Positions 4,163-61,383 of a DNA stretch of 64,000 nucleotides are shown in pieces (position 1 is the stretch's first letter; the number at the start of each line of letters is the position of its first letter). This stretch comes from an uncultured Acidobacteriota bacterium. Its GTDB lineage: Bacteria; Acidobacteriota; Terriglobia; Terriglobales; Acidobacteriaceae. Position numbers and translations under genes: made by a program. The notes beneath the pieces are model-generated. The model saw nothing but the letters and a program-made list of their open reading frames with translations, was not told the origin of the DNA and made no database searches. The DNA lies in the NCBI GenBank assembly GCA_963842345.1, contig CAWJGD010000027.1, positions 77,383 through 141,382 of the forward strand, read 5' to 3'.

Positions 4163-6720
4163 TTACTTGGTGCTGAGCAGGCGAATGCGGGTGGTGAAGG
4201 CGCGTCCGGTGAAGTTGCTGAAGGTGAGGAACTGCGACGAGTTGATGTCGTTATTTACGACCGTGGGATTCTGGTGGCCGGTGATGTTATCGAAGCCGGC
4301 GCGAATCGCAAGGTAGCGGCCGAAGGCGTGGAAGCGCTTTTCCACTTGCAGATTGAGCGTGAAGTAATTCGGGAATCGTTGTGAGCCGGGCGGTCCGACC
4401 AGTTGCAATTGGTCGTTCACGACACTGAAGTCGAAGCCGTCGCGCCACTCGGCGGAGTAGGCGAGATCAAGCTTCTTGATCAGCGGAAGTTTAAAGAACG
4501 GCAGCAGCCCCCAGGAGATGAATCGGTTCGGCGTATCCCAAGGATAAGGACCGGCGGCCTGCGGGCTGAGGACGGGGTTGTCCACATTGAAGTCGAGCAC
4601 CTGGTTGGAGCGGGTTTTCGAGCGCGTGTAAGAGCCGAACAGAACGTAGGGGCCGCGGAAGTGCTTGCGCAGAGCGAGTTGCACGGCGTCGTAGTGGTCC
4701 TCGCGCGTGCTCTGCAATTGGAAGTTGCCGCCAGGCGCTCCGTTGACGGTGTTGTAGACGAGTCCGTTGCTTCCGCGCCGCTCGATGAACTCGGCTTTCA
4801 GGTAAACGGCGGCAGGCAGCCGGCGCTCGATGGCAACGCTCCAGTTCAAAGAGCGGGGCGCGCTCAGCGAACTGGGGTTGGCGGAAAAGGTTGTGACCAC
4901 GGGCGCGCCCAGCGGGTTTCCATTGGCGTCGAAAAACGTATCCTGCCGCTGCGCCCGCCAGGGGACGCGCAATGAGCCTGATGCTGGTTTCGTCGTAGAC
5001 GAGGCCGATTCCGGCCGACAACTTGGTTTTGGCTTCGCTGTCCAGCGCGTAGGCAGCCGTCAGTCGCGGCGAAAAAAGCGACTGCCGCAAGATTTCATCC
5101 CAGTCATAGCGCAGGCCGGATTCAACGATGAGCCGGTTGGCCGGCGACCAGCGGTCCTGCACGTATCCCGAGGTTTGCAGGTTGTGAGTCAGCGACTCCG
5201 CGCCGCCGGAGAAAGTCGAGTAACGGGAGCAGGGTGACGGCATAACTGCGAGACAGTCGCCGTTCGGAGGAGAACTCTGTCCCTCGCGCAGAAACGCAAT
5301 CGGCTGGCGCTGGAAGGCAGCAGTCGTAGGCCAGGCGATCGAGATCGATGCCAAAGCGGAATTCGTGTCGCCCATGCCACTGGCGAGACGGCAGGTACAG
5401 GTTGGCCAGCGCCTGCCAGCGGCGGGCCTGAGTGCGGTCCGCGAGATAGTAGCTGCCACCGGAAGTTTCAGGCGTTATGAAATAGGGAAGGCTGCCGTGC
5501 GGATACTCGTTCAGGCCGTTCTGGACGAATCCAAAGCCGGTCTCGAGAAGTTCGCCGCCGCGAAAGTAATGTTGATCTTTGACGTTGGCGACGTAGGCGG
5601 CTTCGGCATCGACCGGAGAAGACTGCTGCGGAGCCAGAGCAGAGAGTCCCAGGTATTCGTCATGAAGATGGTTGTACAGAAAACTGGTGGTGAGAATGTT
5701 GCGCGAAGTCAGGTTGGTCTGCACTTTCGCCAGGTTGCTCATCCTCCAGACGTGGTCGCTGTTGGCGCCGGAGGGCAGTTCGGTGATGACAACATTGTCA
5801 TATTCTCCCTCCAGCGCATTGAAGAACCAAACCTTGCCCTTGCGCAGCGGACCGGAAAAAGTGAGGCGAGGGTCTACTTTATCGAAGGTAAGTCCGTTTT
5901 TGTTCTGCACCGAAGGAATGAAGTCGGTGACGGTGAAGCGGTAATGATCGTCGCCGGTGAGGGTGTTCATGCTCAAGACCCCGGCAGATGCCTTGCCGTA
6001 TTCGGCGGGGATTCTACTGCTCTCGACCTCGACCAGTCGAAAGGCGTCGGTGCTGAGGCGTACGAGCAGAAGGCCGTTGGCGGGCTGTGTGACGTTGAAG
6101 CCATCGAGCAGCGCCAGTGTCTGATAGGTCTCCGCGCCCGTCACGTGCGGCTGGCCGCTCGCGTCCTGCAGCACGCCGGGAATATAGTTGAGCGCATTGC
6201 GGTAATCGCGGGTGGAGGGATAAGGGATGTCGATGATGTTGAGGCCAGTGAGCTGCTCTTGCGAGGCAGTCTGCGCGGGATCGATTGCCGGCGGCGATTC
6301 CACTACATTCATTTCTTCGCGCACTTCGCGCTGCGGCGAGAGACGCACTTCCATATCGTTGGTGACGCCCACGCGGACCAGCGGCAGAACCAGCGCGTAG
6401 AAGCCCGGTTTCTCCACGCGCAACCGGTAATCGCCGGCGGGGATGCCGGCAAACTGGCAACGCCCGGAAAAGTTGGTATCGCAACGGAGAGCGGCCGATT
6501 GCGGCGTAAGCTGCAGCGAGACTCGAGCCGCGGCAATGGCAATTCCGTTTTCATCGGTTACGGTTACGGCGAGTTTCGCTACCGGGGAAGGCGTGGGAGG
6601 ATTGCCAGCCACCCCAGCGAGCCGAGCCTCGCTGGGGCCCCCGGTATTCACTTGCGGGCGAGCAGCGACAGATGAGGCCAGCAAAAACAAAATCGCGAAC
6701 TTTTGCCAGAACCGTAGCAC
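4163..6720 (-). CDS. TonB-dependent outer-membrane receptor with N-terminal carboxypeptidase-regulatory-like domain; two frameshifts (~5332 and ~4957)
   Basis: ORFs 5122..6720, 4491..5459 and 4163..4972 join into one ~850 aa protein. It has a signal peptide, a CarboxypepD_reg-like region (VTVTDENGIAIAAARVSL...GDYRLRVEKPGF), a plug region (NIIDIPYPSTRDYRNALNYIPGV) and a C-terminal barrel (YVQDRWSP...RLLSTK). Confidence 0.85.
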
Positions 6721-20790: not shown

Positions 20791-21678
20791 CTAGTGTTCC
20801 GATCCGGGGCCCCCGGCGACTGCCGTTTTTGCACTCGTAGGGGCGGGTGTGACGAAATGCCGGTCGATGCCCAACTGCTCGCCCGACAAGCCCAAAGCCA
20901 GCCCCACCACGTCGGACAGGTAATACACCGTCAGGTCGAGCTTTTTGCCGTACTTGCGTTCCACTGCCGCCTGCTTCATGTCGAGGTTGACGTGGCACAT
21001 GGGGCAGGCGACGACGACGCAGTTCGCGCCGTGCTCGACAGCGTTGGTAAGAATTTTGCAAGCGAGCTCCAACACCGTGTCTTCGCTCGCCATGGTCATG
21101 CCCGCGCCGCAACACTCGGTCTTGTAACTCCACTCCACCGTCTTGGCGCCGAGCGCCGCCAGCAGCGTTTCCATGGACTTGGGTTGTTCGAAGTCGTCGA
21201 ACTTGACGACGCCCGGCGGGCGAAGCAGCAGGCAGCCGTAGTAGCACGCCGCCGTTATGGATTCGAGCGGCTGCGTGACGGCTGTCTTGAGACGGTCTCC
21301 GCCGATGGTCTCGAACAACTGGATCAGGTTGAGGACCTCGGCGTCTCCGCGAAGCTCGGCTTCGACGATCTGCGACAGCTCCTGGCGCACGCTATCGTCG
21401 GCGACCGCCTGACGCACCTTCAGAAGCTGCATCGAACACAGCGGACAAGGCGCAAAAACTTCTTTAAATCCGTCGCGTTCGGCGAGGGCCAGATTCCTGG
21501 CGGGAAGCGCCAGAGCCAGCTTGTGGTTCAGCGAGTGCGCCGCCGTCGCCCCGCAACAGATCCAGTCCTTCACTTCCTGAAGGCTGACGCCAAGCGCGCC
21601 CAGGCAGGCTTTCAGCGACTGATCGTAGTCATTGGACGAGCCATGCAGCGCGCATCCGGGATAGTAGCCGATGTTCAT
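20791..21678 (-). CDS. hdrB: Heterodisulfide reductase subunit B-like (two CCG domains)
   Basis: The true start is ATG 21678 (MNIGYYPGCALHGS) inside ORF 20791..22074. CCG motifs are WICCGATAAH and ECCGAGMT, plus PCPLC and CPMCH. There is an ATGA overlap with hdrC. Confidence 0.9.
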   Translation of the reverse strand: MNIGYYPGCALHGSSNDYDQSLKACLGALGVSLQEVKDWICCGATAAHSLNHKLALALPARNLALAERDGFKEVFAPCPLCSMQLLKVRQAVADDSVRQELSQIVEAELRGDAEVLNLIQLFETIGGDRLKTAVTQPLESITAACYYGCLLLRPPGVVKFDDFEQPKSMETLLAALGAKTVEWSYKTECCGAGMTMASEDTVLELACKILTNAVEHGANCVVVACPMCHVNLDMKQAAVERKYGKKLDLTVYYLSDVVGLALGLSGEQLGIDRHFVTPAPTSAKTAVAGGPGSEH

Positions 21679-22331
21679 TTGGCGACAGCCTCCACGGGAG
21701 CCCCGGCGGGAGATGTCCGGGATCCCCGGCGATTGCCTTCTTTGCAATCGCTGGGGTGGAAGGATGGCGCGCAACGGGCGTAAATGCGGCCTACGACCGC
21801 GCAATCGCGCGCCCGGTCGGATGCCAGATGCAGCTTCTTGCGCGACATCAGTTGCGGAGCCAGTCCGGCGTCCTTGAAAAGGAAGGCAAGCTGCCGCGTG
21901 CGCGACAGGACAGCAAGTTTGAAGCGCGCGATCAGTTCCAACTCGTTCAAACGGCCGTTGCGCTTGATGTTGTCGAGAAATGCCTGCTGAAAGGCCACCA
22001 CGGTTTGCGCCTCCGGACTCACCTTGCCTTCCCGCAGCGAGAACTCGCGCAACGCGTCCAGCAGGGCGGCACAATCAACCTGCTTGGGACACCTCGTCGA
22101 GCAGGTCAGACACGATACGCAGGCCCAGATGGAAGGCGAAGTCAAGGCAAGATCGTCGCGACCGAGTTGCAGAAGCCGGATCAGTTGATTCGGCACCAGA
22201 TCCATACGCGAGGCGACCGGGCAGCCGGCCGTACACTTGCCACACTGGTAGCAGTTTGCGATCTTGCTGCCGGCGAGCGATTCAATGCGCGCGGAGTGCG
22301 TGATAGCGCCAGACGGTTCCATGGGAGTCAA
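21675..22331 (-). CDS. hdrC: Heterodisulfide reductase subunit C-like (4Fe-4S dicluster)
   Basis: ORF 21675..22331 has CYQCGKCTAGCP and CVSCLTCSTRCP. The start is either TTG 22331 or ATG 22322. Confidence 0.85.
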   Translation of the reverse strand: MTPMEPSGAITHSARIESLAGSKIANCYQCGKCTAGCPVASRMDLVPNQLIRLLQLGRDDLALTSPSIWACVSCLTCSTRCPKQVDCAALLDALREFSLREGKVSPEAQTVVAFQQAFLDNIKRNGRLNELELIARFKLAVLSRTRQLAFLFKDAGLAPQLMSRKKLHLASDRARDCAVVGRIYARCAPSFHPSDCKEGNRRGSRTSPAGAPVEAVAK

Positions 22332-22514
22332 TTATTACTTTATGTCGAATGCGGAGCTTCGCAGTGACGGGCGGCACGTCGTCGCGTATTGCAGGCCACA
22401 CGCGCTGAGGGTACGGATTGCCAAACCAACGATGGAAATGGCCTAGCGCTTATTCTGGTGGGGTTGTCCCGACACAAACTCGGACTGTCATGGCGAGCGA
22501 AGTCGAGCCGGGGT

Positions 22515-22548
22515 CCCCAACATGCGCTGCAGTTGCGCGTGTTCGGGG
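22515..22548. repeat. Repeat family D hairpin
   Basis: CCCCAACATGCGCTGCAGTTGCGCGTGTTCGGGG. Confidence 0.7.
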
Positions 22549-22605: not shown

Positions 22606-22646
22606 CCCCAGCACGCGCAACTACGGCGCGTGCCGGGGACCCCGCG
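22606..22646. repeat. Repeat family D hairpin
   Basis: CCCCAGCACGCGCAACTACGGCGCGTGCCGGGGACCCCGCG is close to 37055..37094. Confidence 0.8.
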
Positions 22647-30074: not shown

Positions 30075-30232
30075 TCTGCTGCAAAACTGTTCTCCGAGGG
30101 TGTCATCCTGAGAGTTTGTGACTTTATTGAATTCGCAAAAATCCGATGTTGCAAGCAAAGACGTTACGGGCGAAAAAATGCCTGAAAATCAATAAAGTCA
30201 CAAACTCTGAGCGCAGCGAAGGATCTGCTGTT
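30075..30232. repeat. Repeat family A copy carrying a nested 94-bp MITE
   Basis: CTGCTGCAAAACTGTTCTCCGAGGGTGTCATCCTGAG ... CGCAGCGAAGGATCTGCTG matches the left arm of 36908..37142, interrupted at CTGAG. Confidence 0.85.
30113..30206. mobile_element. 94-bp MITE with perfect 18-bp terminal inverted repeats and a 5-bp target duplication
   Basis: The TIR AGTTTGTGACTTTATTGA (30113..30130) is the reverse complement of 30189..30206. It is flanked by direct CTGAG at 30108..30112 and 30207..30211. Removing it restores the family A consensus GTCATCCTGAGCGCAGCGAAGGATC. Confidence 0.8.
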
Positions 30233-33396: not shown

Positions 33397-34683
33397 ATGC
33401 CGATCGCACTGATAAGCACACTGGACACAAAAGGGCGCGAGGTCGCGTATCTCAAGTCGTGCCTCAAGGAGTTGGGGCGGTCGGTGGTGGTGATCGATGT
33501 AGGTATGGCGGAGCCTGTCGGAGTTGCGCCGGAGATTTCGCGTTTCGAGGTGGCCGAGGCCGCAGGCACCGATCTGCGCAAGCTGAGCGGACGGCAGCGC
33601 GATGAAGTGATGGCTACGATGGGACGCGGAGCCGGCGAGGTGTTGCACAGGCTCTGGGCCCAGGCCGAACTGTCGGGTGTGCTTGGACTGGGCGGAAACC
33701 AGGGTACGGCTGTCGTCTGCGCCGCCATGCGCGAACTGCCGCTGGGTGTTCCCAAGTTCATGGTGTCGACGGTTGCCTCGGGGAACATGCGTCCCTACAT
33801 CGGGACCAGTGATATCGCCGTGCTGTTTTCGGTGGCCGATCTGTTAGGCGGGCCGAACCCGGTGCTCGAACCGGTGCTGCGAAACGCGGCGGCGGCGATT
33901 GCCGGCATGGCTGCCATGCCGCCGGTTTCAGATTCATCGGACAAACCCTTGGTGGCAATCACGGCTTTGGGAAACACGCACCCGGCGGTTGCGAGAGCGG
34001 TGGAAATTCTGCGTGGCGCGGGATTGCAGATTGCCGTCTTCCATGCTTCCGGGGCCTGCGGCTCCGCCATGGAACGATTGATTCGCGCCGGCCGCGTGGC
34101 GGCGGTGCTGGAGCTTACGCCGCATGAGCTGACGGAAGAGGTATTGAAAGCCGGCGTCTACCAGCCGGTGGAAGGCAAACGTCTGATTGCCGCCGGAGAG
34201 ATGGGTATTCCTCAGGTGGTGGCTCCGGGCAGCGTCGAGTATCTTTGCTTCGGACCGCGGGAGTCGATTCCGGCGCGCTTGCGGCGAAGACGCACGTATT
34301 TGCACAACCGCTCGAACGCCAACGTCAGGACCAGCCGCGAAGAGATGGCCAAAGTGGGCGGGGTACTCGCCGAACGGCTGAATCGGGCCAAGGGTCCGGT
34401 TGCCATGGTCTTGCCGCTGAAAGGCTGGTCGGTCTACGGCGCTCCCGGGGGACCGTTGCACGATGCTAAGGCCGATGCGGCTTTTGTGCAATCGCTGACG
34501 CGCACTTTGCGCAAGAACATAGCGTTCCACAAGCTTCCGCTGCATATCAACGACCCGGCATTTGCCCAGCACTGCTGTCAATTGCTGATGCAGTTTATGG
34601 CGAAGCAAGAGGGTAGCGCGGGCGATGACAAAACGATCAGCTCTGGAGCTAGGGCTGTTACTGGTGGAACTACCCCACGTTAG
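33397..34683 (+). CDS. UPF0261 (Tm-1-like ATP-binding) family protein
   Basis: ORF 33397..34683. The pattern MPIALISTLDTKGREVAYLK...GLGGNQGT...PKFMVSTVASG...ITALGNT...FHASGACG...GIPQVVAPG is typical of UPF0261. The last codons run into a REP-like repeat. Confidence 0.8.
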   Translation: MPIALISTLDTKGREVAYLKSCLKELGRSVVVIDVGMAEPVGVAPEISRFEVAEAAGTDLRKLSGRQRDEVMATMGRGAGEVLHRLWAQAELSGVLGLGGNQGTAVVCAAMRELPLGVPKFMVSTVASGNMRPYIGTSDIAVLFSVADLLGGPNPVLEPVLRNAAAAIAGMAAMPPVSDSSDKPLVAITALGNTHPAVARAVEILRGAGLQIAVFHASGACGSAMERLIRAGRVAAVLELTPHELTEEVLKAGVYQPVEGKRLIAAGEMGIPQVVAPGSVEYLCFGPRESIPARLRRRRTYLHNRSNANVRTSREEMAKVGGVLAERLNRAKGPVAMVLPLKGWSVYGAPGGPLHDAKADAAFVQSLTRTLRKNIAFHKLPLHINDPAFAQHCCQLLMQFMAKQEGSAGDDKTISSGARAVTGGTTPR

Positions 34684-34710
34684 CCAAAAGCAGGCGAACA
34701 TGGGGCACCC
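34673..34710. repeat. Repeat family B hairpin
   Basis: CCCCACGTTAGCCAAAAGCAGGCGAACATGGGGCACCC, preceded by ACTA as at 42371 and 55781. Confidence 0.8.
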
Positions 34711-36907: not shown

Positions 36908-37142
36908 GCTGCTGAAAAACTCTTCTCCGAGGGTGTCATCCTGAGCGCAGCCGGGGTCCCCGGCGAGCCCTGCTCGCTGGGGTGATTGCGGTGGAGGAGC
37001 GAAGGATCTGCTGTTTGCGCGCGTTAAGAGTAAAGCAGATCCTTCGGTCGCCCGCCCCAACATGCGCAACTACGGCGCCTGTCGGGGACCCCGCAAAACC
37101 GACGCGACCTCAGGATGACACTGGTACGAGTTTTTCAGCAGC
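36908..37142. repeat. Composite 235-bp palindromic element (family A arms enclosing two family D hairpins)
   Basis: GCTGCTGAAAAACTC...GTCATCCTGAG at the left end mirrors CTCAGGATGAC...GAGTTTTTCAGCAGC at the right end. The internal CGAAGGATCTGCTG / CAGATCCTTCG pair and the D-type hairpins lie at 36951..36986 and 37055..37094. Confidence 0.85.
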
Positions 37143-42341: not shown

Positions 42342-42374
42342 GTTAGAAGGCGCTTTAGGTGCGCCACCAAACTA

Positions 42375-42411
42375 CCCCAGGTTAGCCAAAGGCGGGCGAA
42401 CCTGGGGCACC
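42375..42411. repeat. Repeat family B hairpin
   Basis: CCCCAGGTTAGCCAAAGGCGGGCGAACCTGGGGCACC. Confidence 0.8.
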
Positions 42412-48391: not shown

Positions 48392-48466
48392 CGCCTAAAG
48401 ATTCAAGTCATTACCAAGGTGCATGCAGCAATGGCCAATGACTGGTGATGGGCTTCCGGCTAAACA

Positions 48467-48539
48467 ACCCCACGTTAGCCCAATCACCCCAGCGAGCGGT
48501 GCTCGCCGGGGACCCCGATGCGGGCGAACATGGGGCACC
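48467..48539. repeat. Family B hairpin with a family D element nested in its loop
   Basis: CCCCACGTTAGCCCAA[TCACCCCAGCGAGCGGTGCTCGCCGGGGACCCCGAT]GCGGGCGAACATGGGGCACC. Compare the uninterrupted copy at 34673..34710. Confidence 0.8.
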
Positions 48540-55745: not shown

Positions 55746-55784
55746 GCGCCGTTGGAGCGCCACCCGAAGAAACTACCCCACGTC

Positions 55785-55826
55785 AGTCCCAAAAGCGGGA
55801 CGGGACGTGGGCCACCCGGCAGACGT
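55785..55826. repeat. Repeat family B hairpin
   Basis: CCCCACGTCAGTCCCAAAAGCGGGACGGGACGTGGGCCACCC. Confidence 0.8.
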
Positions 55827-55862: not shown

Positions 55863-57395
55863 ATGCCAACGCCGAACACTGTCGCGGCTGACTGCGTGCC
55901 GACACTGGCTGAAGCGCTGGGGATCGCCGCTTTCGGTCCAGCAACCGGGGACGTTCTCGCGGAGTCCCAGGGCTGTGAAGTGGTGGCGTTCACCGGCAGC
56001 GGTGGTAAGACTACGGCTATGTTCCGGCTGGCCGCCGAGCTGGTTGCACGCGGGGCACGCGTGCTGATCACGACCACAACTCACATCTATCCCCCGGATT
56101 CGCAACAGTTCCCCGCCACGGTCATCCCCGTGGTCATGGAAGACTCGCTGGAAACCCTTGTGCGCAGCGCACGGAGTGCCCTGGATCGGGGGCAACCCGC
56201 AGTGATCCTCGCGCGAGGGTTGGGGACAGACGGCAAACTTGTGGGCATCGATCCCGGATGGATAGAGCAACTGCCGAAGCGACTCCACGTCACCCACCTG
56301 CTGGTTGAGGCCGACGGCTCGCGGGGGCGGCCGTTCAAGGCTCCGGCGGAGCACGAGCCGGTGATACCGCCGTCCGCAGACTTGGTGGTGGCCGTGGTTG
56401 GACTTTCGGTGATCGGCCAGCCGCTATCGGAGGAGTTTGTGCACCGTCCCGAGCGCGTGGCGGACTTGGCGGGATGCCAGTTGGGCGACAGAGTCAGCCC
56501 GGCGTTGGTTGCCGGCGTGCTGCGGCATCCGGAGGGAAGCACGCGCGGAACGCCGGCCGGCGCCAGGGTGGTGGCACTGCTCAACCAGGCCGACGACGCA
56601 AGCCGCTTCGAGTCCGGTTGCGAGGTCGCCCGCGAGTTGATGGAGCGCGGCGCGGAACGGGTGGTCATCGCGGCTTTGCGCGAGGCGATGCCGATTCGCC
56701 GGGTGATCACCGGAAGCGCTCATGACGGCGCTTCCAGCGCGACGAGGGTTTCCGCCATCGTGCTGGCCGCCGGTGAAGGACGCCGTATGAGGTCGCTCAC
56801 GGCACCCCAGCGAGCCAAAGGCAGGCTTGCCGGGGACCCCGCGCTCAAGCTGGCCCTGCGGCTTGGCGGAAAAAGTCTCTTGCGCCATGTGGTAGAGGCC
56901 GCACTGGCGTCGCCGGTGGACGAGGTTGTGGTTGTGCTTGGACACGGCGCGGCGGAATTGGAGCTAGAGCTGCCACGCGATCCCCGGGTCCGCACCGCCT
57001 TCAATCCGGACTACGCCACAGGCCAAAGTTCGTCGGTCAAGGCAGGGATCAACGTGCTCGCTCCCCAGGCGCAGGCGGCGGTATTTCTGCTCGGCGACCA
57101 GCCGTTGGTCAGTTCGCGGGCCATCGCGGCCCTCGTCGGTGCCTTCCGCAGCGGCGGCAGCGCGGTGGTGCGGCCACGGTACCGAGGGACTCCGGGAAAT
57201 CCTGTGCTTTTCTCGCGGGCGCTATTCGCGGAGCTGTTGCAGGTTACGGGCGATCAGGGAGGACGGGAGCTGCTAGCTCGCCATCAGGCTGAGGTTGCAA
57301 TGGTGGATCTGAATCTGGAGTCGCCAGTCGACATTGACACCAAAAAAGATTACTCCCAACTTGTAAGAAACCTTCCCGATTTGGAAAAGCTGTGA
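55863..57395 (+). CDS. Fusion protein: YqeC-family selenium-dependent hydroxylase accessory domain + MocA-like molybdenum cofactor cytidylyltransferase domain
   Basis: ORF 55863..57395. The N-half has a P-loop (FTGSGGKTT) and VEADGSRGRPFKAPAEHEPVIP, as in YqeC (TIGR03172-like). The C-half has IVLAAGEGRRM...LGGKSLL...VVVVLGH...FLLGDQP, as in MobA/MocA NTP transferases. Confidence 0.8.
   Translation: MPTPNTVAADCVPTLAEALGIAAFGPATGDVLAESQGCEVVAFTGSGGKTTAMFRLAAELVARGARVLITTTTHIYPPDSQQFPATVIPVVMEDSLETLVRSARSALDRGQPAVILARGLGTDGKLVGIDPGWIEQLPKRLHVTHLLVEADGSRGRPFKAPAEHEPVIPPSADLVVAVVGLSVIGQPLSEEFVHRPERVADLAGCQLGDRVSPALVAGVLRHPEGSTRGTPAGARVVALLNQADDASRFESGCEVARELMERGAERVVIAALREAMPIRRVITGSAHDGASSATRVSAIVLAAGEGRRMRSLTAPQRAKGRLAGDPALKLALRLGGKSLLRHVVEAALASPVDEVVVVLGHGAAELELELPRDPRVRTAFNPDYATGQSSSVKAGINVLAPQAQAAVFLLGDQPLVSSRAIAALVGAFRSGGSAVVRPRYRGTPGNPVLFSRALFAELLQVTGDQGGRELLARHQAEVAMVDLNLESPVDIDTKKDYSQLVRNLPDLEKL
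56796..56843. repeat. Family D-like 48-nt element lying in frame inside the MocA-domain coding sequence
   Basis: CACCCCAGCGAGC...GCCGGGGACCCCG shares both 13-nt arms with intergenic copies at 48485..48517 and 36951..36986 (reverse complement). Confidence 0.7.
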
Positions 57396-58327
57396 GAAAA
57401 TCCCGGCACCGAGTTATTAGAAGAGCTGAGAATCCGTGTCCGAGACGTACGGATTCTTCCGCTTCCAGTTCGGTTGAGCGAAGGATTGGGCCCGTGTTTG
57501 AAGACGCAGTTGTGGTGATTAAAGGTGCGGGAGACTTGGCCAGTGGAGTGATTCTGCGGCTTCATCGCGCGGGGCTCCGGCTGGTTGTGACCGAGATTGA
57601 ACAGCCGACTACGGTGCGGCGGACGGTAGCTTTTTCCGAGGCGATCTACTGCGGAGAAGTCGAAGTCGAGGGAGTGCGCGCGCGCAAGATTAAAGATAGC
57701 AATGAAATTCCGCGAGCGTGGAGCGAGGGTGTGGTGCCTGTACTGGTCGATCCGTGGGCCGAGATCGTGCCACGGCTTCGTCCAGCGGCGGTGGTTGACG
57801 CCATTCTCGCCAAGCGCAACCTTGGGACACGGATCTCGGATGCGGATGTCGTGATTGGTCTCGGACCGGGCTTCGAGGCGGGAGTCGATGTCCACGCGGT
57901 GGTGGAAACCAACCGTGGCCATCAGCTTGGCCGGGTTTTATGGCATGGCTTCGCCGAACCGGATACGGGTGTGCCTGGCGAAATCGCGGGCCATGGCCTG
58001 CAACGGCTGCTGCGGGCTCCATCGGCGGGATTGTTTCGGGGCGAGAGAGCGATTGGGGATCGGGTTGAAGCCGGCGAGGTGGTCTGTTGGATCGACCAGA
58101 CGCCGGTAAAGGCCGGCATTGCGGGCGTGCTGCGCGGACTGCTGCATGACGGCTTGTGCGTTTATCCGGGAATGAAGATTGGCGACATCGATCCGAGGGC
58201 TGCTCGCGAACATTGCTTCACTGTGTCGGATAAGTCGCTGGCGATCGCAGGAGGAGTCCTGGAGGCAGTGCTTTACCTTTTGCGCGGGCAATGCCGCGCG
58301 TTTGCCCAGAGCGCTTCCGTCCGATAG
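57392..58327 (+). CDS. YqeB-family selenium-dependent molybdenum hydroxylase system protein
   Basis: ORF 57392..58327 overlaps the upstream stop (GTGA). The pattern VVIKGAGDLASGV...RRTVAFSEAIY...VVDAILAKRNLGT...ETNRGHQLGRV...GVLRGLL...G.KIGDIDPR matches the YqeB C-terminal family (TIGR03309-like). The start may instead be GTG 57494. Confidence 0.75.
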   Translation: MRKSRHRVIRRAENPCPRRTDSSASSSVERRIGPVFEDAVVVIKGAGDLASGVILRLHRAGLRLVVTEIEQPTTVRRTVAFSEAIYCGEVEVEGVRARKIKDSNEIPRAWSEGVVPVLVDPWAEIVPRLRPAAVVDAILAKRNLGTRISDADVVIGLGPGFEAGVDVHAVVETNRGHQLGRVLWHGFAEPDTGVPGEIAGHGLQRLLRAPSAGLFRGERAIGDRVEAGEVVCWIDQTPVKAGIAGVLRGLLHDGLCVYPGMKIGDIDPRAAREHCFTVSDKSLAIAGGVLEAVLYLLRGQCRAFAQSASVR

Positions 58328-59137: not shown

Positions 59138-61366
59138 ATGAGCTCGGAATTTAGAGTTATCGGAAAGCCTCAACCAAAGATGGACGGGTTTGAAAAAGTA
59201 ACCGGACGGGCGAAGTATGCCACGGATTTCTCCCTTCCCGGCATGCTCTGCGTGAAGGTCTTGAGAAGCCCGTACCCGCATGCGCGGGTTGTCAACATCG
59301 ATGCCTCGAAAGCCCTGGCATTGCCGGGCGTAAAGGCGGTGCTTACCCACAAGGATATCGCGGCGTATCCCCGCTGGAATCCCGTTTACCCAATCCTCAC
59401 GGATGTCGCCCGCTTCGTTGGCGATGACATTGCTTTGGTAGCCGCGGTGGATGAGGAGACGGCTGTGGAAGCGCTGGCCTTGATCAAGGTCGACTACCAG
59501 GTTCTTCCCTTTGTGCTGGATCCGGAAGAAGCGCTGAAGCCGAGCGCCCCCAAGTTATTTCCGGAGGGCAACCTGGTCGGTGGTAAGCCGACGGTGGTCA
59601 GCAGGGGGGACGTGGCGAAAGGTTTTGCCGAGGCCGATCTGGTCTACGAAGCACGCTATCGGACTCCCATCAATCAGCACGCGACCATGGAGGCCAGGGC
59701 CGCGATTGCCCAGTGGGAAGGCGGCAGGTTGACCATCTGGGATTCCACCCAGGCTCCGTTCGAAGTGCAGAAAGCAGTCGCCAAAGCGCTCAAGATCCCG
59801 CAGAGCAAAGTGCATGTGATCTGCGAGTTTATGGGAGGCGGCTTCGGCGACAAATCCTCCCCGGGACGGCAAAGTGTTCAGGCCGCCATCGTCGCCCGGA
59901 AGACGGGCCGCCCGGCAAGAATCGAGTTAGAAAGAGAGGAATGCTATCTTGAGGGCCTGCACCGCTATGCGGCCATCATTGACCTGAAGTACGGGGTGAA
60001 GAAGGACGGCACGCTTACTGCTATCGAGGCGAAAGTTGTCGCAGATGGTGGAGCTTATGCTGTCTTTGGGCTCGCCGCACTCGGGGTACTGCAAATTCCG
60101 ATGGATGTTTACCGTTGCCCGAATATGAAAGGCGAGGGCTATACGGTGAATACGAACAACCCGGCAACCGGCCCCATGCGCTGTGTCGGGCATCCCCAGG
60201 GAACGTTTGCCCAGGAAGTCCACATGGACATCATCGCCGAGAAGCTGGGGATGGACCCGGTGGAATTGCGCTTGAAAAATTATGCGCGGCTGGAAGATGG
60301 CGACCAGTTCAGGAAGATTCCTTTCACCAGCAACGGCATGGAAGAGTGCATCAAGCGTGGCGCGGAAACCTTCCAGTGGAAAGAGAAGATGCAGAAGGCG
60401 GCCGCCCAGGCTGGTCCGGTCAAGAAGGGTTTTGGCGTATCGGTTCACGCATGCCGCCATGGCGGCATGCCTCCGGGAATGCCTTTGTCAGGCATGGTGC
60501 GGATCAACGCCGATGGCACATTGAATGTGTTCACCGGCGCAACCGAGCTTGGATGCGGGCAGAAAACCACCATGGCGATGATCGCCGCCGAAGAGTTCGG
60601 GATGTTGTTGAACGATGTGTACGTCACTACGGGCGATACCGACAAGACGACGGACACAGGCAGCACTTCCGGGAGTCGCCAGACAATCACCGGCGGAACC
60701 GGCGTGAAGATGGCGGCGGCGGACGCCAAGAACCAATTGCTTGACGTGGCGGCTGCCGAGCTGAAGACGGACAAGAAGAACCTGAGCATTCGGGACAGCA
60801 TGGTCTATGTGGCGGGCTCCGACAAAGGTGTTCCGCTGGATCAGATTGCGGCAAAAATGCCGGGCGGGGTCATTCACGGCCGCGGCTACATGAAGATTCC
60901 CACGGATGTTTTTTTCCATGGGTTCGCGGCGCAGTTTGCCGAGGTGGAAGTGGACACCCGCAACGGCCATGTCAAAGTTCTCAAGATCGTGGCGGCTCAC
61001 GATCTCGGTCGGGTCATCAACCCACTGACGGCCGAGAGCCAGATCGAGGGAGGCGTGATTCAGGGAATGGCCTTTGGCTTGTCTGAAGATCAGATCTACG
61101 ACAAAGCCACCGGCATTTGCGTGAACCCGAATCATCTCAATTACAAGCTGATGACGATGAAGGATGTGCCGGAGATCGTGCCGATCATGGTGGAGTCGAT
61201 CGATAAACTAGGCCCGTTCGGGGCGAAGGGTATTGGGGAACCACCCTACAGCCCGCCCGCACCGGCCATAGCGAATGCGATCTACAACGCGATCGGCGTC
61301 CGCTTCTCGGAACTTCCGATCACCAACCGTGCGATCCTCATGGGCCTGAAGGCGAAAAAGGGCTAG
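59138..61366 (+). CDS. Molybdenum hydroxylase large (molybdopterin-binding) subunit, xanthine dehydrogenase / aldehyde oxidoreductase family
   Basis: ORF 59138..61366 (742 aa) has the KVTGRAKYATD start and GGGFGDK, then a C-terminal GAKGIGEPP motif. Confidence 0.9.
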   Translation: MSSEFRVIGKPQPKMDGFEKVTGRAKYATDFSLPGMLCVKVLRSPYPHARVVNIDASKALALPGVKAVLTHKDIAAYPRWNPVYPILTDVARFVGDDIALVAAVDEETAVEALALIKVDYQVLPFVLDPEEALKPSAPKLFPEGNLVGGKPTVVSRGDVAKGFAEADLVYEARYRTPINQHATMEARAAIAQWEGGRLTIWDSTQAPFEVQKAVAKALKIPQSKVHVICEFMGGGFGDKSSPGRQSVQAAIVARKTGRPARIELEREECYLEGLHRYAAIIDLKYGVKKDGTLTAIEAKVVADGGAYAVFGLAALGVLQIPMDVYRCPNMKGEGYTVNTNNPATGPMRCVGHPQGTFAQEVHMDIIAEKLGMDPVELRLKNYARLEDGDQFRKIPFTSNGMEECIKRGAETFQWKEKMQKAAAQAGPVKKGFGVSVHACRHGGMPPGMPLSGMVRINADGTLNVFTGATELGCGQKTTMAMIAAEEFGMLLNDVYVTTGDTDKTTDTGSTSGSRQTITGGTGVKMAAADAKNQLLDVAAAELKTDKKNLSIRDSMVYVAGSDKGVPLDQIAAKMPGGVIHGRGYMKIPTDVFFHGFAAQFAEVEVDTRNGHVKVLKIVAAHDLGRVINPLTAESQIEGGVIQGMAFGLSEDQIYDKATGICVNPNHLNYKLMTMKDVPEIVPIMVESIDKLGPFGAKGIGEPPYSPPAPAIANAIYNAIGVRFSELPITNRAILMGLKAKKG

Positions 61367-61383
61367 GGTGAAGGAGATAAACG

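Follow-up and report, generated by a model that had tools for sequence, protein, structure and literature searches.

Can a palindromic repeat enter the nucleotide-binding signature of an enzyme in frame, and what becomes of the enzyme afterwards? The question is raised by a yqeC-mocA fusion gene in a stretch of 64,000 nt (the window) of contig CAWJGD010000027.1 from an uncultured Acidobacteriota bacterium (GCA_963842345.1). An earlier reading of this DNA (the original prediction) placed a 48-nt insert derived from an intergenic hairpin repeat in the MocA part of the gene, and proposed that it either inactivates MocA or has been domesticated as a surface loop. Our analysis indicates that a repeat very probably inserted in frame in the ancestor of one clade and that it is now a tolerated, decaying loop extension of a MocA domain that is still constrained. 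The features of the host gene and insert are as follows.

55863-57395, plus strand: yqeC-mocA fusion gene, host of the insert (510-residue open reading frame, ORF; Pfam, TIGR, and AlphaFold2)
56754-57290, plus strand: MocA-type (MobA-like NTP transferase) domain (PF12804, E = 1.8e-34)
56793-56801, plus strand: decayed upstream target copy, TCGCTCACG (Ser-Leu-Thr), ancestrally GCGCTCAAG (Ala-Leu-Lys), from ortholog comparison
56802-56840, plus strand: the 39-nt palindrome itself, GCACCCCAGCGAGCCAAAGGCAGGCTTGCCGGGGACCCC, which encodes APQRAKGRLAGDP (exact arms, consensus identity, missing from locus L090)
56841-56849, plus strand: intact downstream target copy, GCGCTCAAG (Ala-Leu-Lys), source of the conserved Lys329 and identical to the single copy in L090

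The insert and its host gene

The yqeC-mocA product combines two domains. A Pfam search places the YqeC domain (PF19842) at residues 41-197 of the 510-residue protein with 153 bits, and the TIGR03172 YqeC model gives 195.7 bits, exceeding its cutoff of 73. The MobA-like NTP_transf_3 domain (PF12804) covers residues 298-476 and scores 119.7 bits (cutoff, 27). The window protein has the signature LAAGEGRRM...K329, and the Lys329 column is nearly invariant among 115 homologs. The spacing from Arg-Arg-Met to this Lys is 19 residues in the window protein and 3 in homologs outside the insert-bearing clade. The original prediction had counted 16 extra residues relative to Escherichia coli MocA with the Lys in register, and alignment with the actual K-12 mocA gene gave the same result (ITAAGLSSRM-GQW-KMML versus LAAGEGRRM-[19 residues]-KLAL).

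The sequence at 56796-56843 is as it had been quoted and lies in frame within the plus-strand ORF 55863-57395. Both arms of the hairpin repeat, each 13 nt long, are found within it. Arm CACCCCAGCGAGC occurs exactly at 56803, 48485, 36972 (minus strand), and 6610, and arm GCCGGGGACCCCG occurs exactly at 56829, 48505, 36952 (minus strand), and 22632. In 100 dinucleotide-preserving shuffles, the chance expectation at up to one mismatch was 0.20 for CACCCCAGCGAGC, whose 4 matches were reached in 0/100 shuffles, and 0.30 for GCCGGGGACCCCG, whose 9 matches were likewise reached in 0/100. The 39-nt core (56803-56841) has 36/39 identity (92%) to the consensus of a 39-nt subfamily, at equal length. The hairpin predicted for the MocA copy has a folding energy of -24 kcal/mol on the plus strand and -31.5 kcal/mol on the minus strand. 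Direct reading of the 39-nt element found no stop codon in any of the six frames. The peptide APQRAKGRLAGDP is rich in Arg and Lys; the loop segment of the window YqeC-MocA reads SLTAPQRAKGRLAGDP, and the stretches that span the insert are RRMRSLTAPQR and AKGRLAGDPALK.

Empty and filled sites

Fourteen orthologous loci were fetched, and the site was read in each. In L090, from the sister clade, the site is empty and reads CGC ATG GGT GCG CTC AAG CTG GCC (RRM-GAL-K), with GCGCTCAAG present once between ATGGGT and CTGGCC. In L083 and L086 the site is filled and reads ATG GGC GCGCTCAAG [A/G CACCCC...GGGGACCCC] GCGCTCAAG TTG GCC. The upstream target copy is exactly GCGCTCAAG in these two loci and TCGCTCAAG in L081; in the window it is TCGCTCACG, which agrees with GCGCTCAAG at 7/9 positions. 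Comparison of the empty site with the two filled sites therefore resolves the 48 nt into a 39-nt element and an exact 9-bp target duplication, which doubles the Ala-Leu-Lys codons, the conserved Lys among them. The length and frame proposed for the insert stand, whereas its position shifts by 3-6 nt to a frame-equivalent window. Similarly, the 48 nt had been taken as repeat throughout, but this applies to 39 nt, and the remaining 9 nt are duplicated target.

A neighbor-joining tree with the insert columns left out places all insert-bearing proteins (P0001-P0020) in one clade. There are 3 residues between RRM and K in the sister group (P0021-24) and in the other homologs inspected, which include proteins from Chloroflexota, from Firmicutes-type genomes, and E. 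coli MocA. The insert is thus limited to one monophyletic clade, and distant orthologs lack the segment. Empty and filled sites, the target duplication, and the family match together support the view that a palindromic repeat landed in frame, bringing no stop codon, within the signature loop of a coding sequence; the description of the repeat as intergenic holds only partly. Separately, a homolog outside the insert clade (P0025) reads RRMGLLKPDVLKLAL (RRMGLLKPDVLK), which may be the scar of an independent insertion in the same codons with LK duplicated.

These sites suggest the following course of events. A 39-bp palindromic, non-autonomous element, from a family that is abundant in this Acidobacteriota lineage, would have entered the Gly-Ala-Leu-Lys codons of the MocA signature (LAAGxGRRM-GxL-K) once, in the common ancestor of one soil Acidobacteriota clade. 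Nine bp of target, GCGCTCAAG, were duplicated on entry, giving 48 nt (39 + 9). The reading frame survived because the total is 48 nt and all six frames of the element are open. On translation, the insert would then lengthen the flexible Arg-Arg-Met-to-Lys loop by 16 residues, taking the spacing from 3 to 19. The downstream Ala-Leu-Lys duplicate would supply the functional Lys while the upstream duplicate decays. The enzyme domain has remained under purifying selection and, by prediction, folded, and the insert would be a tolerated passenger that is trimmed by in-frame deletions in different lineages.

Decay of the insert and selection on the gene

Within the insert clade the number of extra residues is 16, 15, 14, 12, 8, 7, 6, or 2, and all versions are in frame. 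At the DNA level, the shortened inserts are in-frame deletions that removed different parts of the element.

L082: 6 nt of the upstream target copy lost
L001 and L003: 5' arm lost
L088: 3' arm lost
L002: equal to the L087 type minus 21 nt
L085: only GAC CCC left, a "DP" scar

Two extra residues are found in P0013 and P0019, and 6-8 in P0010, P0011, P0017, and P0018. In the tree, the short forms branch from within groups of full-length relatives (P0013, for example, pairs with P0006 as its sister), indicating that the deletions are independent. Every deletion derivative keeps the downstream Ala/Ser-Leu-Lys copy. In L089 (P0020), which has 27 extra residues, the loop of the first copy appears from the sequence to hold another copy of the family.

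Ratios of nonsynonymous to synonymous substitution rates (dN/dS) were estimated among insert-bearing orthologs by the Nei-Gojobori method. Leaving out the insert, the MocA domain gives 0.16-0.36; the range for YqeC is 0.15-0.26, with dS reaching ~0.6. For the insert itself dN/dS is 0.08-1.1 on ~50 sites, and on the whole it is less constrained than the rest of the MocA domain. The insert is probably selectively near-neutral. The ORF is intact in 14/15 orthologous loci read, the exception being L007.

In the AlphaFold2 (AF2) model, built with 115 homologs, the mean predicted local distance difference test (pLDDT) score is 89. Residues 310-328 form a coil with pLDDT of 59-71, and the flanking segments are above 90. 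Foldseek comparison of the model with the Rv0371c-type structures 2waw and 2wee gave template modeling (TM) scores of 0.87-0.91 (E = 2e-16 to 2e-14), and 2waw is also the best solved relative by sequence (E = 9e-21). The predicted fold is therefore kept with the insert in place, and the insert is a low-confidence coil.

Mobility of the element

Approximately 11 hairpins that follow the pattern (T/C)CACCCCAGC-stem-loop-stem-GCCGGGGACCCCG are present in the window, at 889, 6612, 20805, 21719, 22509, 22606, 36952, 37055, 38054, 48484, and 56802. Elements are 31-41 nt in size, with two inverted arms of ~12 bp and a loop of 3-8 nt. Intergenic copies include the following.

48484-48519, plus strand: intergenic copy nested in the loop of another hairpin repeat at 48463-48539 (sequence; uninterrupted paralogs elsewhere)
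36952-36988, minus strand: intergenic copy nested in a GTCATCCTGAGCGCAGC/GAAGGATCT repeat, forming an inverted doublet with 37055-37094 (plus strand)
22606-22644, plus strand: intergenic copy with the compensated stem ACGCGC/GCGCGT, paired with inverted 22509-22547

The first two correspond to copies that had been predicted at 48485-48517 and, reverse-complemented, at 36951-36986. The 48484 copy breaks the loop of the second hairpin family, which is unbroken at 34668 and 42370. The 36952 copy and a copy at L085:3325 break repeats of the GTCATCCTGAGCG...GAAGGATC type. These paralogous, uninterrupted "empty sites" indicate that the element is mobile.

Direct repeats flank the element more often than expected. 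Flanking repeats score at least 6 in 14/93 copies, compared to 0.8 expected from permuted 5' and 3' flanks (~17-fold). Four flanking duplications are listed here; other copies have duplications of 6-7 bp, and many have none visible.

MocA: GCGCTCAAG, 9 bp
RlmN (L119): GGTTTCTGC/GGTTTCTAC, 9 bp with one mismatch
L149: GGCAAGGTT/GGAAAGGTT, 9 bp with one mismatch
L112: GGATCGC, 7 bp

The enrichment of flanking repeats favors insertion at a staggered cut, in the manner of a MITE (miniature inverted-repeat transposable element), and we infer that the MocA copy was inserted by such transposition in trans. An autonomous partner would be marked by isolated 5' and 3' ends separated by 0.5-3.5 kb; no such ends were found in the window or in the close and metagenome loci compared.

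A second site with filled and empty states lies in the spacer at 61366-61381, between the stop codon of the Mo-hydroxylase large-subunit gene and the next gene. The window, L003, L087, and L090 have no element there. The equivalent spacer is filled with a 39-nt copy in L001 (15491-15529) and L002 (15454-15492), and a remnant, GCCAAGAGCAA, lies near 15850 in L007. So patchy a distribution implies that the element was lost from, or struck, a single site more than once. Comparison of filled and empty states at this spacer gave no clear duplication beyond ~3 bp.

Alternative explanations

The fate of the protein could be read in two other ways, both offered by the original prediction. If the insert had split the GxGxRM...K motif, a pseudo-domain would be decaying beside a useful YqeC domain. 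Inactivation of this kind fits the position of the insert inside the signature, the frameshift at the insert in L007, and the low score against the TIGR03310 MocA equivalog model (165-169 bits with the insert, 169.1 bits in the comparison made here, against a cutoff of 186.45). However, the window protein scores 186.5 bits once the 16 residues are removed, marginally over the cutoff, which indicates that the ~17 bits charged to the insert are a gap penalty and not a lost match; the insert-less ortholog in L090 scores 191.7 bits. MocA is also as constrained as YqeC over dS of up to ~0.6 since insertion, nearly all ORFs are intact, all deletions are multiples of three, the signature residues and Lys329 are conserved, and the predicted fold is intact. 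Inactivation is therefore very improbable, and that part of the prediction is not supported. Domestication would mean that the peptide APQRAKGRLAGDP was co-opted and is now selected, and that it may contact CTP, the phosphates of Mo-molybdopterin (Mo-MPT), or the YqeC domain. The location over the nucleotide-binding signature, the persistence of 14-16-residue versions across lineages at dS of 0.3-0.45, and insert dN/dS below 1 for most pairs (0.24 for the window versus L081) are in its favor. It is opposed by independent in-frame deletions to 2 or 6-8 residues in proteins whose remaining domain is equally conserved, by the low-confidence coil, and by insert dN/dS of ~1 in the pairs L081-L086, L081-L084, and L083-L084. 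Family copies also lie in frame in a wide range of unrelated proteins, where every frame and either orientation is used, which argues against a specific peptide function. The surface loop is thus retained from the original prediction, whereas its domestication, given repeated shortening to 2 residues and faster evolution, is very improbable. The last possibility concerns origin: a GC-rich loop might resemble the repeat by chance, or the repeat family might derive from mocA. The genome has 60% G+C and the element consists of low-complexity C and G runs, yet similarity to the family is far above chance in the shuffles, the core matches the consensus along all of its 39 nt (92% identity, equal length), the sister clade has a precise empty site, and the family is present in at least 120 unrelated contexts. 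We consider this explanation refuted.

The mode of movement can also be read differently. The element could be a classical repetitive extragenic palindromic (REP) sequence, or a REPIN (a REP doublet), moved by a transposase of the REP-associated tyrosine transposase (RAYT) type, in which case the 9-bp repeat at MocA would be incidental and due to microhomology or local duplication. Pure hairpins of 31-41 nt, the inverted doublets 22509/22606 and 36952/37055, the nesting of copies in the loops of other hairpins, and the many copies without flanking repeats all agree with this. In addition, RAYT-like genes termed "TIRYT" are present in Acidobacteria, and the repeats that flank them have a GGGGWSAS motif in common (PMC3733652). 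On the other hand, direct repeats are enriched ~17-fold and start at the element ends in several independent copies, and most copies lack a GTAG or CGTC head. A phmmer search of the 64-kb window with an E. coli RayT query, which was a weak search, gave no RAYT/Y1 transposase match. Movement of the REP/RAYT type is rather unlikely on this evidence.

Several observations weigh against a tolerated, in-frame insertion that duplicated its target. The score against TIGR03310 is under the curated cutoff when the insert is present, and most pairs have insert dN/dS values under 1 (0.08-0.8), so that some constraint is conceivable. The insert-bearing protein is only presumed, from purifying selection, to be catalytically active. 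The closest ortholog from a metagenome-assembled genome, L007:10001-11613 (CAWAZO010000015.1), has at least two frameshifts, a +1 at the 5' junction of the insert and another in the YqeC part, while its remaining MocA frame is flawless; these could be long-read assembly errors or a recent pseudogene. No flanking duplication is seen at many copies (e.g., 48487 and L128), so a 9-bp duplication may not be a rule of the family. Finally, at an intergenic copy, L085:493 (L085:481-531), the 5' flank CAGCTCAAGGCA is 8/10 identical to the MocA-site flank GCGCTCAAGGCA. The probability of this by chance, taken over the copies sampled, is ~0.06, and the element might thus have carried part of the "duplication" with it, or GCTCAAG might be a preferred target. 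Orthologous spacers of L085:493 were too divergent for an empty-site comparison to give boundaries. With these points taken into account, in-frame insertion in the clade ancestor followed by tolerated decay is still very probable.

Genomic context of yqeC-mocA

Neighbors of yqeC-mocA encode a YqeB-family protein (TIGR03309, 380 bits) and XdhA-like Mo-hydroxylase subunits, and the gene order mirrors yqeB-yqeC-mocA in E. coli. XdhC was considered for ORF 57392-58327 and rejected; the ORF has no Pfam match and belongs to the YqeB family TIGR03309. Purifying selection and the YqeB/XdhA-like Mo-hydroxylase neighborhood provide indirect support for a putative CTP:Mo-MPT cytidylyltransferase activity.

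The hairpin repeat family

An exact-pattern scan of public metagenome contigs found the family in at least 120 stretches, which are largely from peat and soil samples going by contig names. Subfamilies keep the flanks and have different yet complementary stems (GCAAGCC/GGCTTGC, GCGGGCC/GGCCCGC, GCGCGCC/GGCGCGC, GCGACGAAGACCTGTCGC, and others). In an alignment of 27 distinct 39-nt copies, 91.7% of cells pair and 4 pairs change on both sides; the covariation score of this alignment was reached in 0/500 shuffles. Pair 7-29 is an A-C mismatch on the plus strand in 15/27 copies and would be a G-U pair on the minus strand. This and the stabler minus-strand fold of the MocA copy may reflect selection, acting either on a transcript of the minus strand or on DNA in single-stranded form. 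An Rfam scan of the whole window found no family at the gathering score, so the hairpins are not a curated RNA family, and a tRNA/tmRNA search of the window found none. Nearly all copies have the head (T/C/G)CAC-CCCC, and a few have CTAC (e.g., 22606 and a separate family B). The CAC head is GTG on the opposite strand, and the GTAG/CGTC head is missing in most copies.

Some copies are arranged in pairs or associated with other repeats. The doublets 22509-22547/22606-22644 and 36952-36988/37055-37094 are inverted and REPIN-like; the arms of the former are 82% complementary, and its spacer is 58 nt. A second hairpin family, AACTACCCCACGTTAGCCAAAgGCGGGCGAACATGGGGCACC, is located at 34668-34709, 42370-42411, 48463-48539, and 55771-55820. 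It has an AGCCAAAGGCrGGC center in common with the MocA-type element, and one copy is just upstream of yqeC-mocA. A third repeat family, GTCATCCTGAGCG(A/C)AGCGAAGGATCT, is located at 30199, 36933, 40503, 52104, and 9778 (minus strand), and it often has the hairpin element at its center (36933/36998, L085:3325, and L098).

Copies inside other genes

At least 15 of ~130 sampled copies are in frame in recognizable genes, in both orientations, and approximately 1 in 8-10 family copies is intragenic. These figures describe the copies sampled. Copies within a single Pfam envelope are found in Cu-oxidase_4 (L105), CHAT (L107), IS256-type transposase (L128), Cation_efflux (L195), LpxI_C (L202), and aconitase/LeuC (L192) proteins. 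Copies in linkers are found in RlmN (L119), HemN-like (L146), MiaB-like (L189), and GcvP (L185) proteins, and a protein with LptC/LptD domains (L207) also has an in-frame copy. In L174 and L204, copies are read in the same frame as in MocA, giving PPQQARSGLAGDP and PPQRRRPVAGDPG. At L180:8744-8893, a protein that combines transpeptidase and SpoIID domains has four tandem in-frame copies (HPSADAAPGTPPW x4). Tandem arrays, with periods of 39-42 nt, occur in L180 and also in L131, L136, L160, and L204. Three further copies in the window are in or at the ends of coding sequences.

6612-6637, minus strand: second in-frame intragenic copy, GGPSEARLAGVAG, in ORF 5122-6720 (CarboxypepD_reg protein), just after the predicted signal peptide
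21719-21756, minus strand: part of the C-terminal tail of an HdrC-like (4Fe-4S) ferredoxin, ORF 21675-22331
20805-20848, minus strand: diverged copy that is the C-terminal tail of an HdrB-like (CCG-domain) ORF

For the copies at 20805 and 21719, stop codons lie just past the elements, directly before the next gene of an hdrCBA-like operon.

Significance

The family suggests a broader proposal, which we make tentatively and rate at somewhat less than an even chance. The CACCCCAGC...GCYGGGGACCCC hairpins may be undescribed minimal transposable elements of 31-41 bp that are moved in trans, make target duplications of ~9 bp, and supply the proteomes of Acidobacteriota (Terriglobia-type) with loop insertions, C-terminal tails, and peptides repeated in tandem. 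Because the elements are open in six frames, they would generate protein insertions widely. If this is true, the MocA locus would be a dated example of the life cycle, including insertion, tolerance, nested re-insertion, and piecemeal deletion.

The locus suggests how a selfish palindromic repeat may come to lie within the active-site signature of an enzyme of an essential pathway while the enzyme survives. The target duplication would have recreated the catalytic Lys beside its native context, with the 16 residues bulging as a loop. Together with the insert-free state, the ortholog length series may serve as a gauge of the loop length that a MobA/MocA-type nucleotidyltransferase tolerates. 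There are also consequences for annotation. The insert pushes the domain beneath the NCBI cutoff for naming MocA, and sibling copies yield spurious-looking segments in many acidobacterial proteins. Peptides such as …HPSxxxxxPGTP…, …GVPGDRSxSLGW…, and …PQxAKGxLAGDP… should be recognized as repeat-derived by annotators and in structure prediction from soil metagenomes.

Comparison with known systems

Rickettsia palindromic elements (RPEs) are ~100-150 bp in size, AT-rich, and confined to Rickettsia, where they lie in frame inside seemingly functional genes. They are reportedly the subject of work by Ogata et al. in 2000 and are cited in PMC3733652 (references 13 and 14). The acidobacterial family resembles them in being palindromic mobile repeats that occur between genes and in frame inside genes, in many unrelated host proteins, and that are translated as an extra surface segment. 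However, the acidobacterial elements are 31-41 bp and GC-rich, and size, composition, and host exclude membership in the RPEs. Here, in addition, the empty site, the 9-bp target duplication, and the decay products are recorded at one locus.

Transposases of the RAYT type (IS200/IS605-like, HUH-Tyr) leave no target duplication. The hairpins have in common with REPs that they are palindromes of 20-40 bp with high copy number, mostly downstream of genes and with a minority in ORFs (PMC3733652). GTAG/CGTC REPs are known to lie within ORFs in several bacteria, where they encode extra residues (PMC3733652). REP termini can also provide stop codons and C-terminal tails, as at 20805 and 21719 in the window. 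Literature searches, which covered the repeat motifs as well as palindromic and MITE elements of Acidobacteria, returned only this general REP paper (PMC3733652) and no description of the hairpin family. The family differs from REPs because most copies have no GTAG/CGTC tag and because flanking direct repeats are enriched, unlike in REP/RAYT systems.

Typical MITEs are ~50-500 bp and have a recognizable parent insertion sequence with the same ends. The hairpins are similar to MITEs (Correia/NEMIS, RUP, and Coxiella elements) in that they are non-autonomous, have inverted terminal repeats and, at some copies, target-site duplications, and can be co-translated where they lie in genes. In Coxiella, MITEs add residues to proteins (PMC5896051), and bacterial MITEs have been reviewed (PMC10969869). 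By comparison, the acidobacterial elements have only two inverted ends and a loop in 31-41 bp, with no parent element in the sequences compared.

The host protein has the same fold and LAAGxxxRM...K signature as E. coli MocA and Mycobacterium tuberculosis Rv0371c (PDB 2we9, 2wee, and 2yes), and it shares with E. coli MocA a gene neighborhood that includes yqeB, yqeC, and Mo-hydroxylase genes. It differs from both in being fused to YqeC and in having 19 residues instead of 3 before the Lys. In-frame palindromic repeats in genes are already known, and this locus provides an acidobacterial example with an unusually complete record at a single site.

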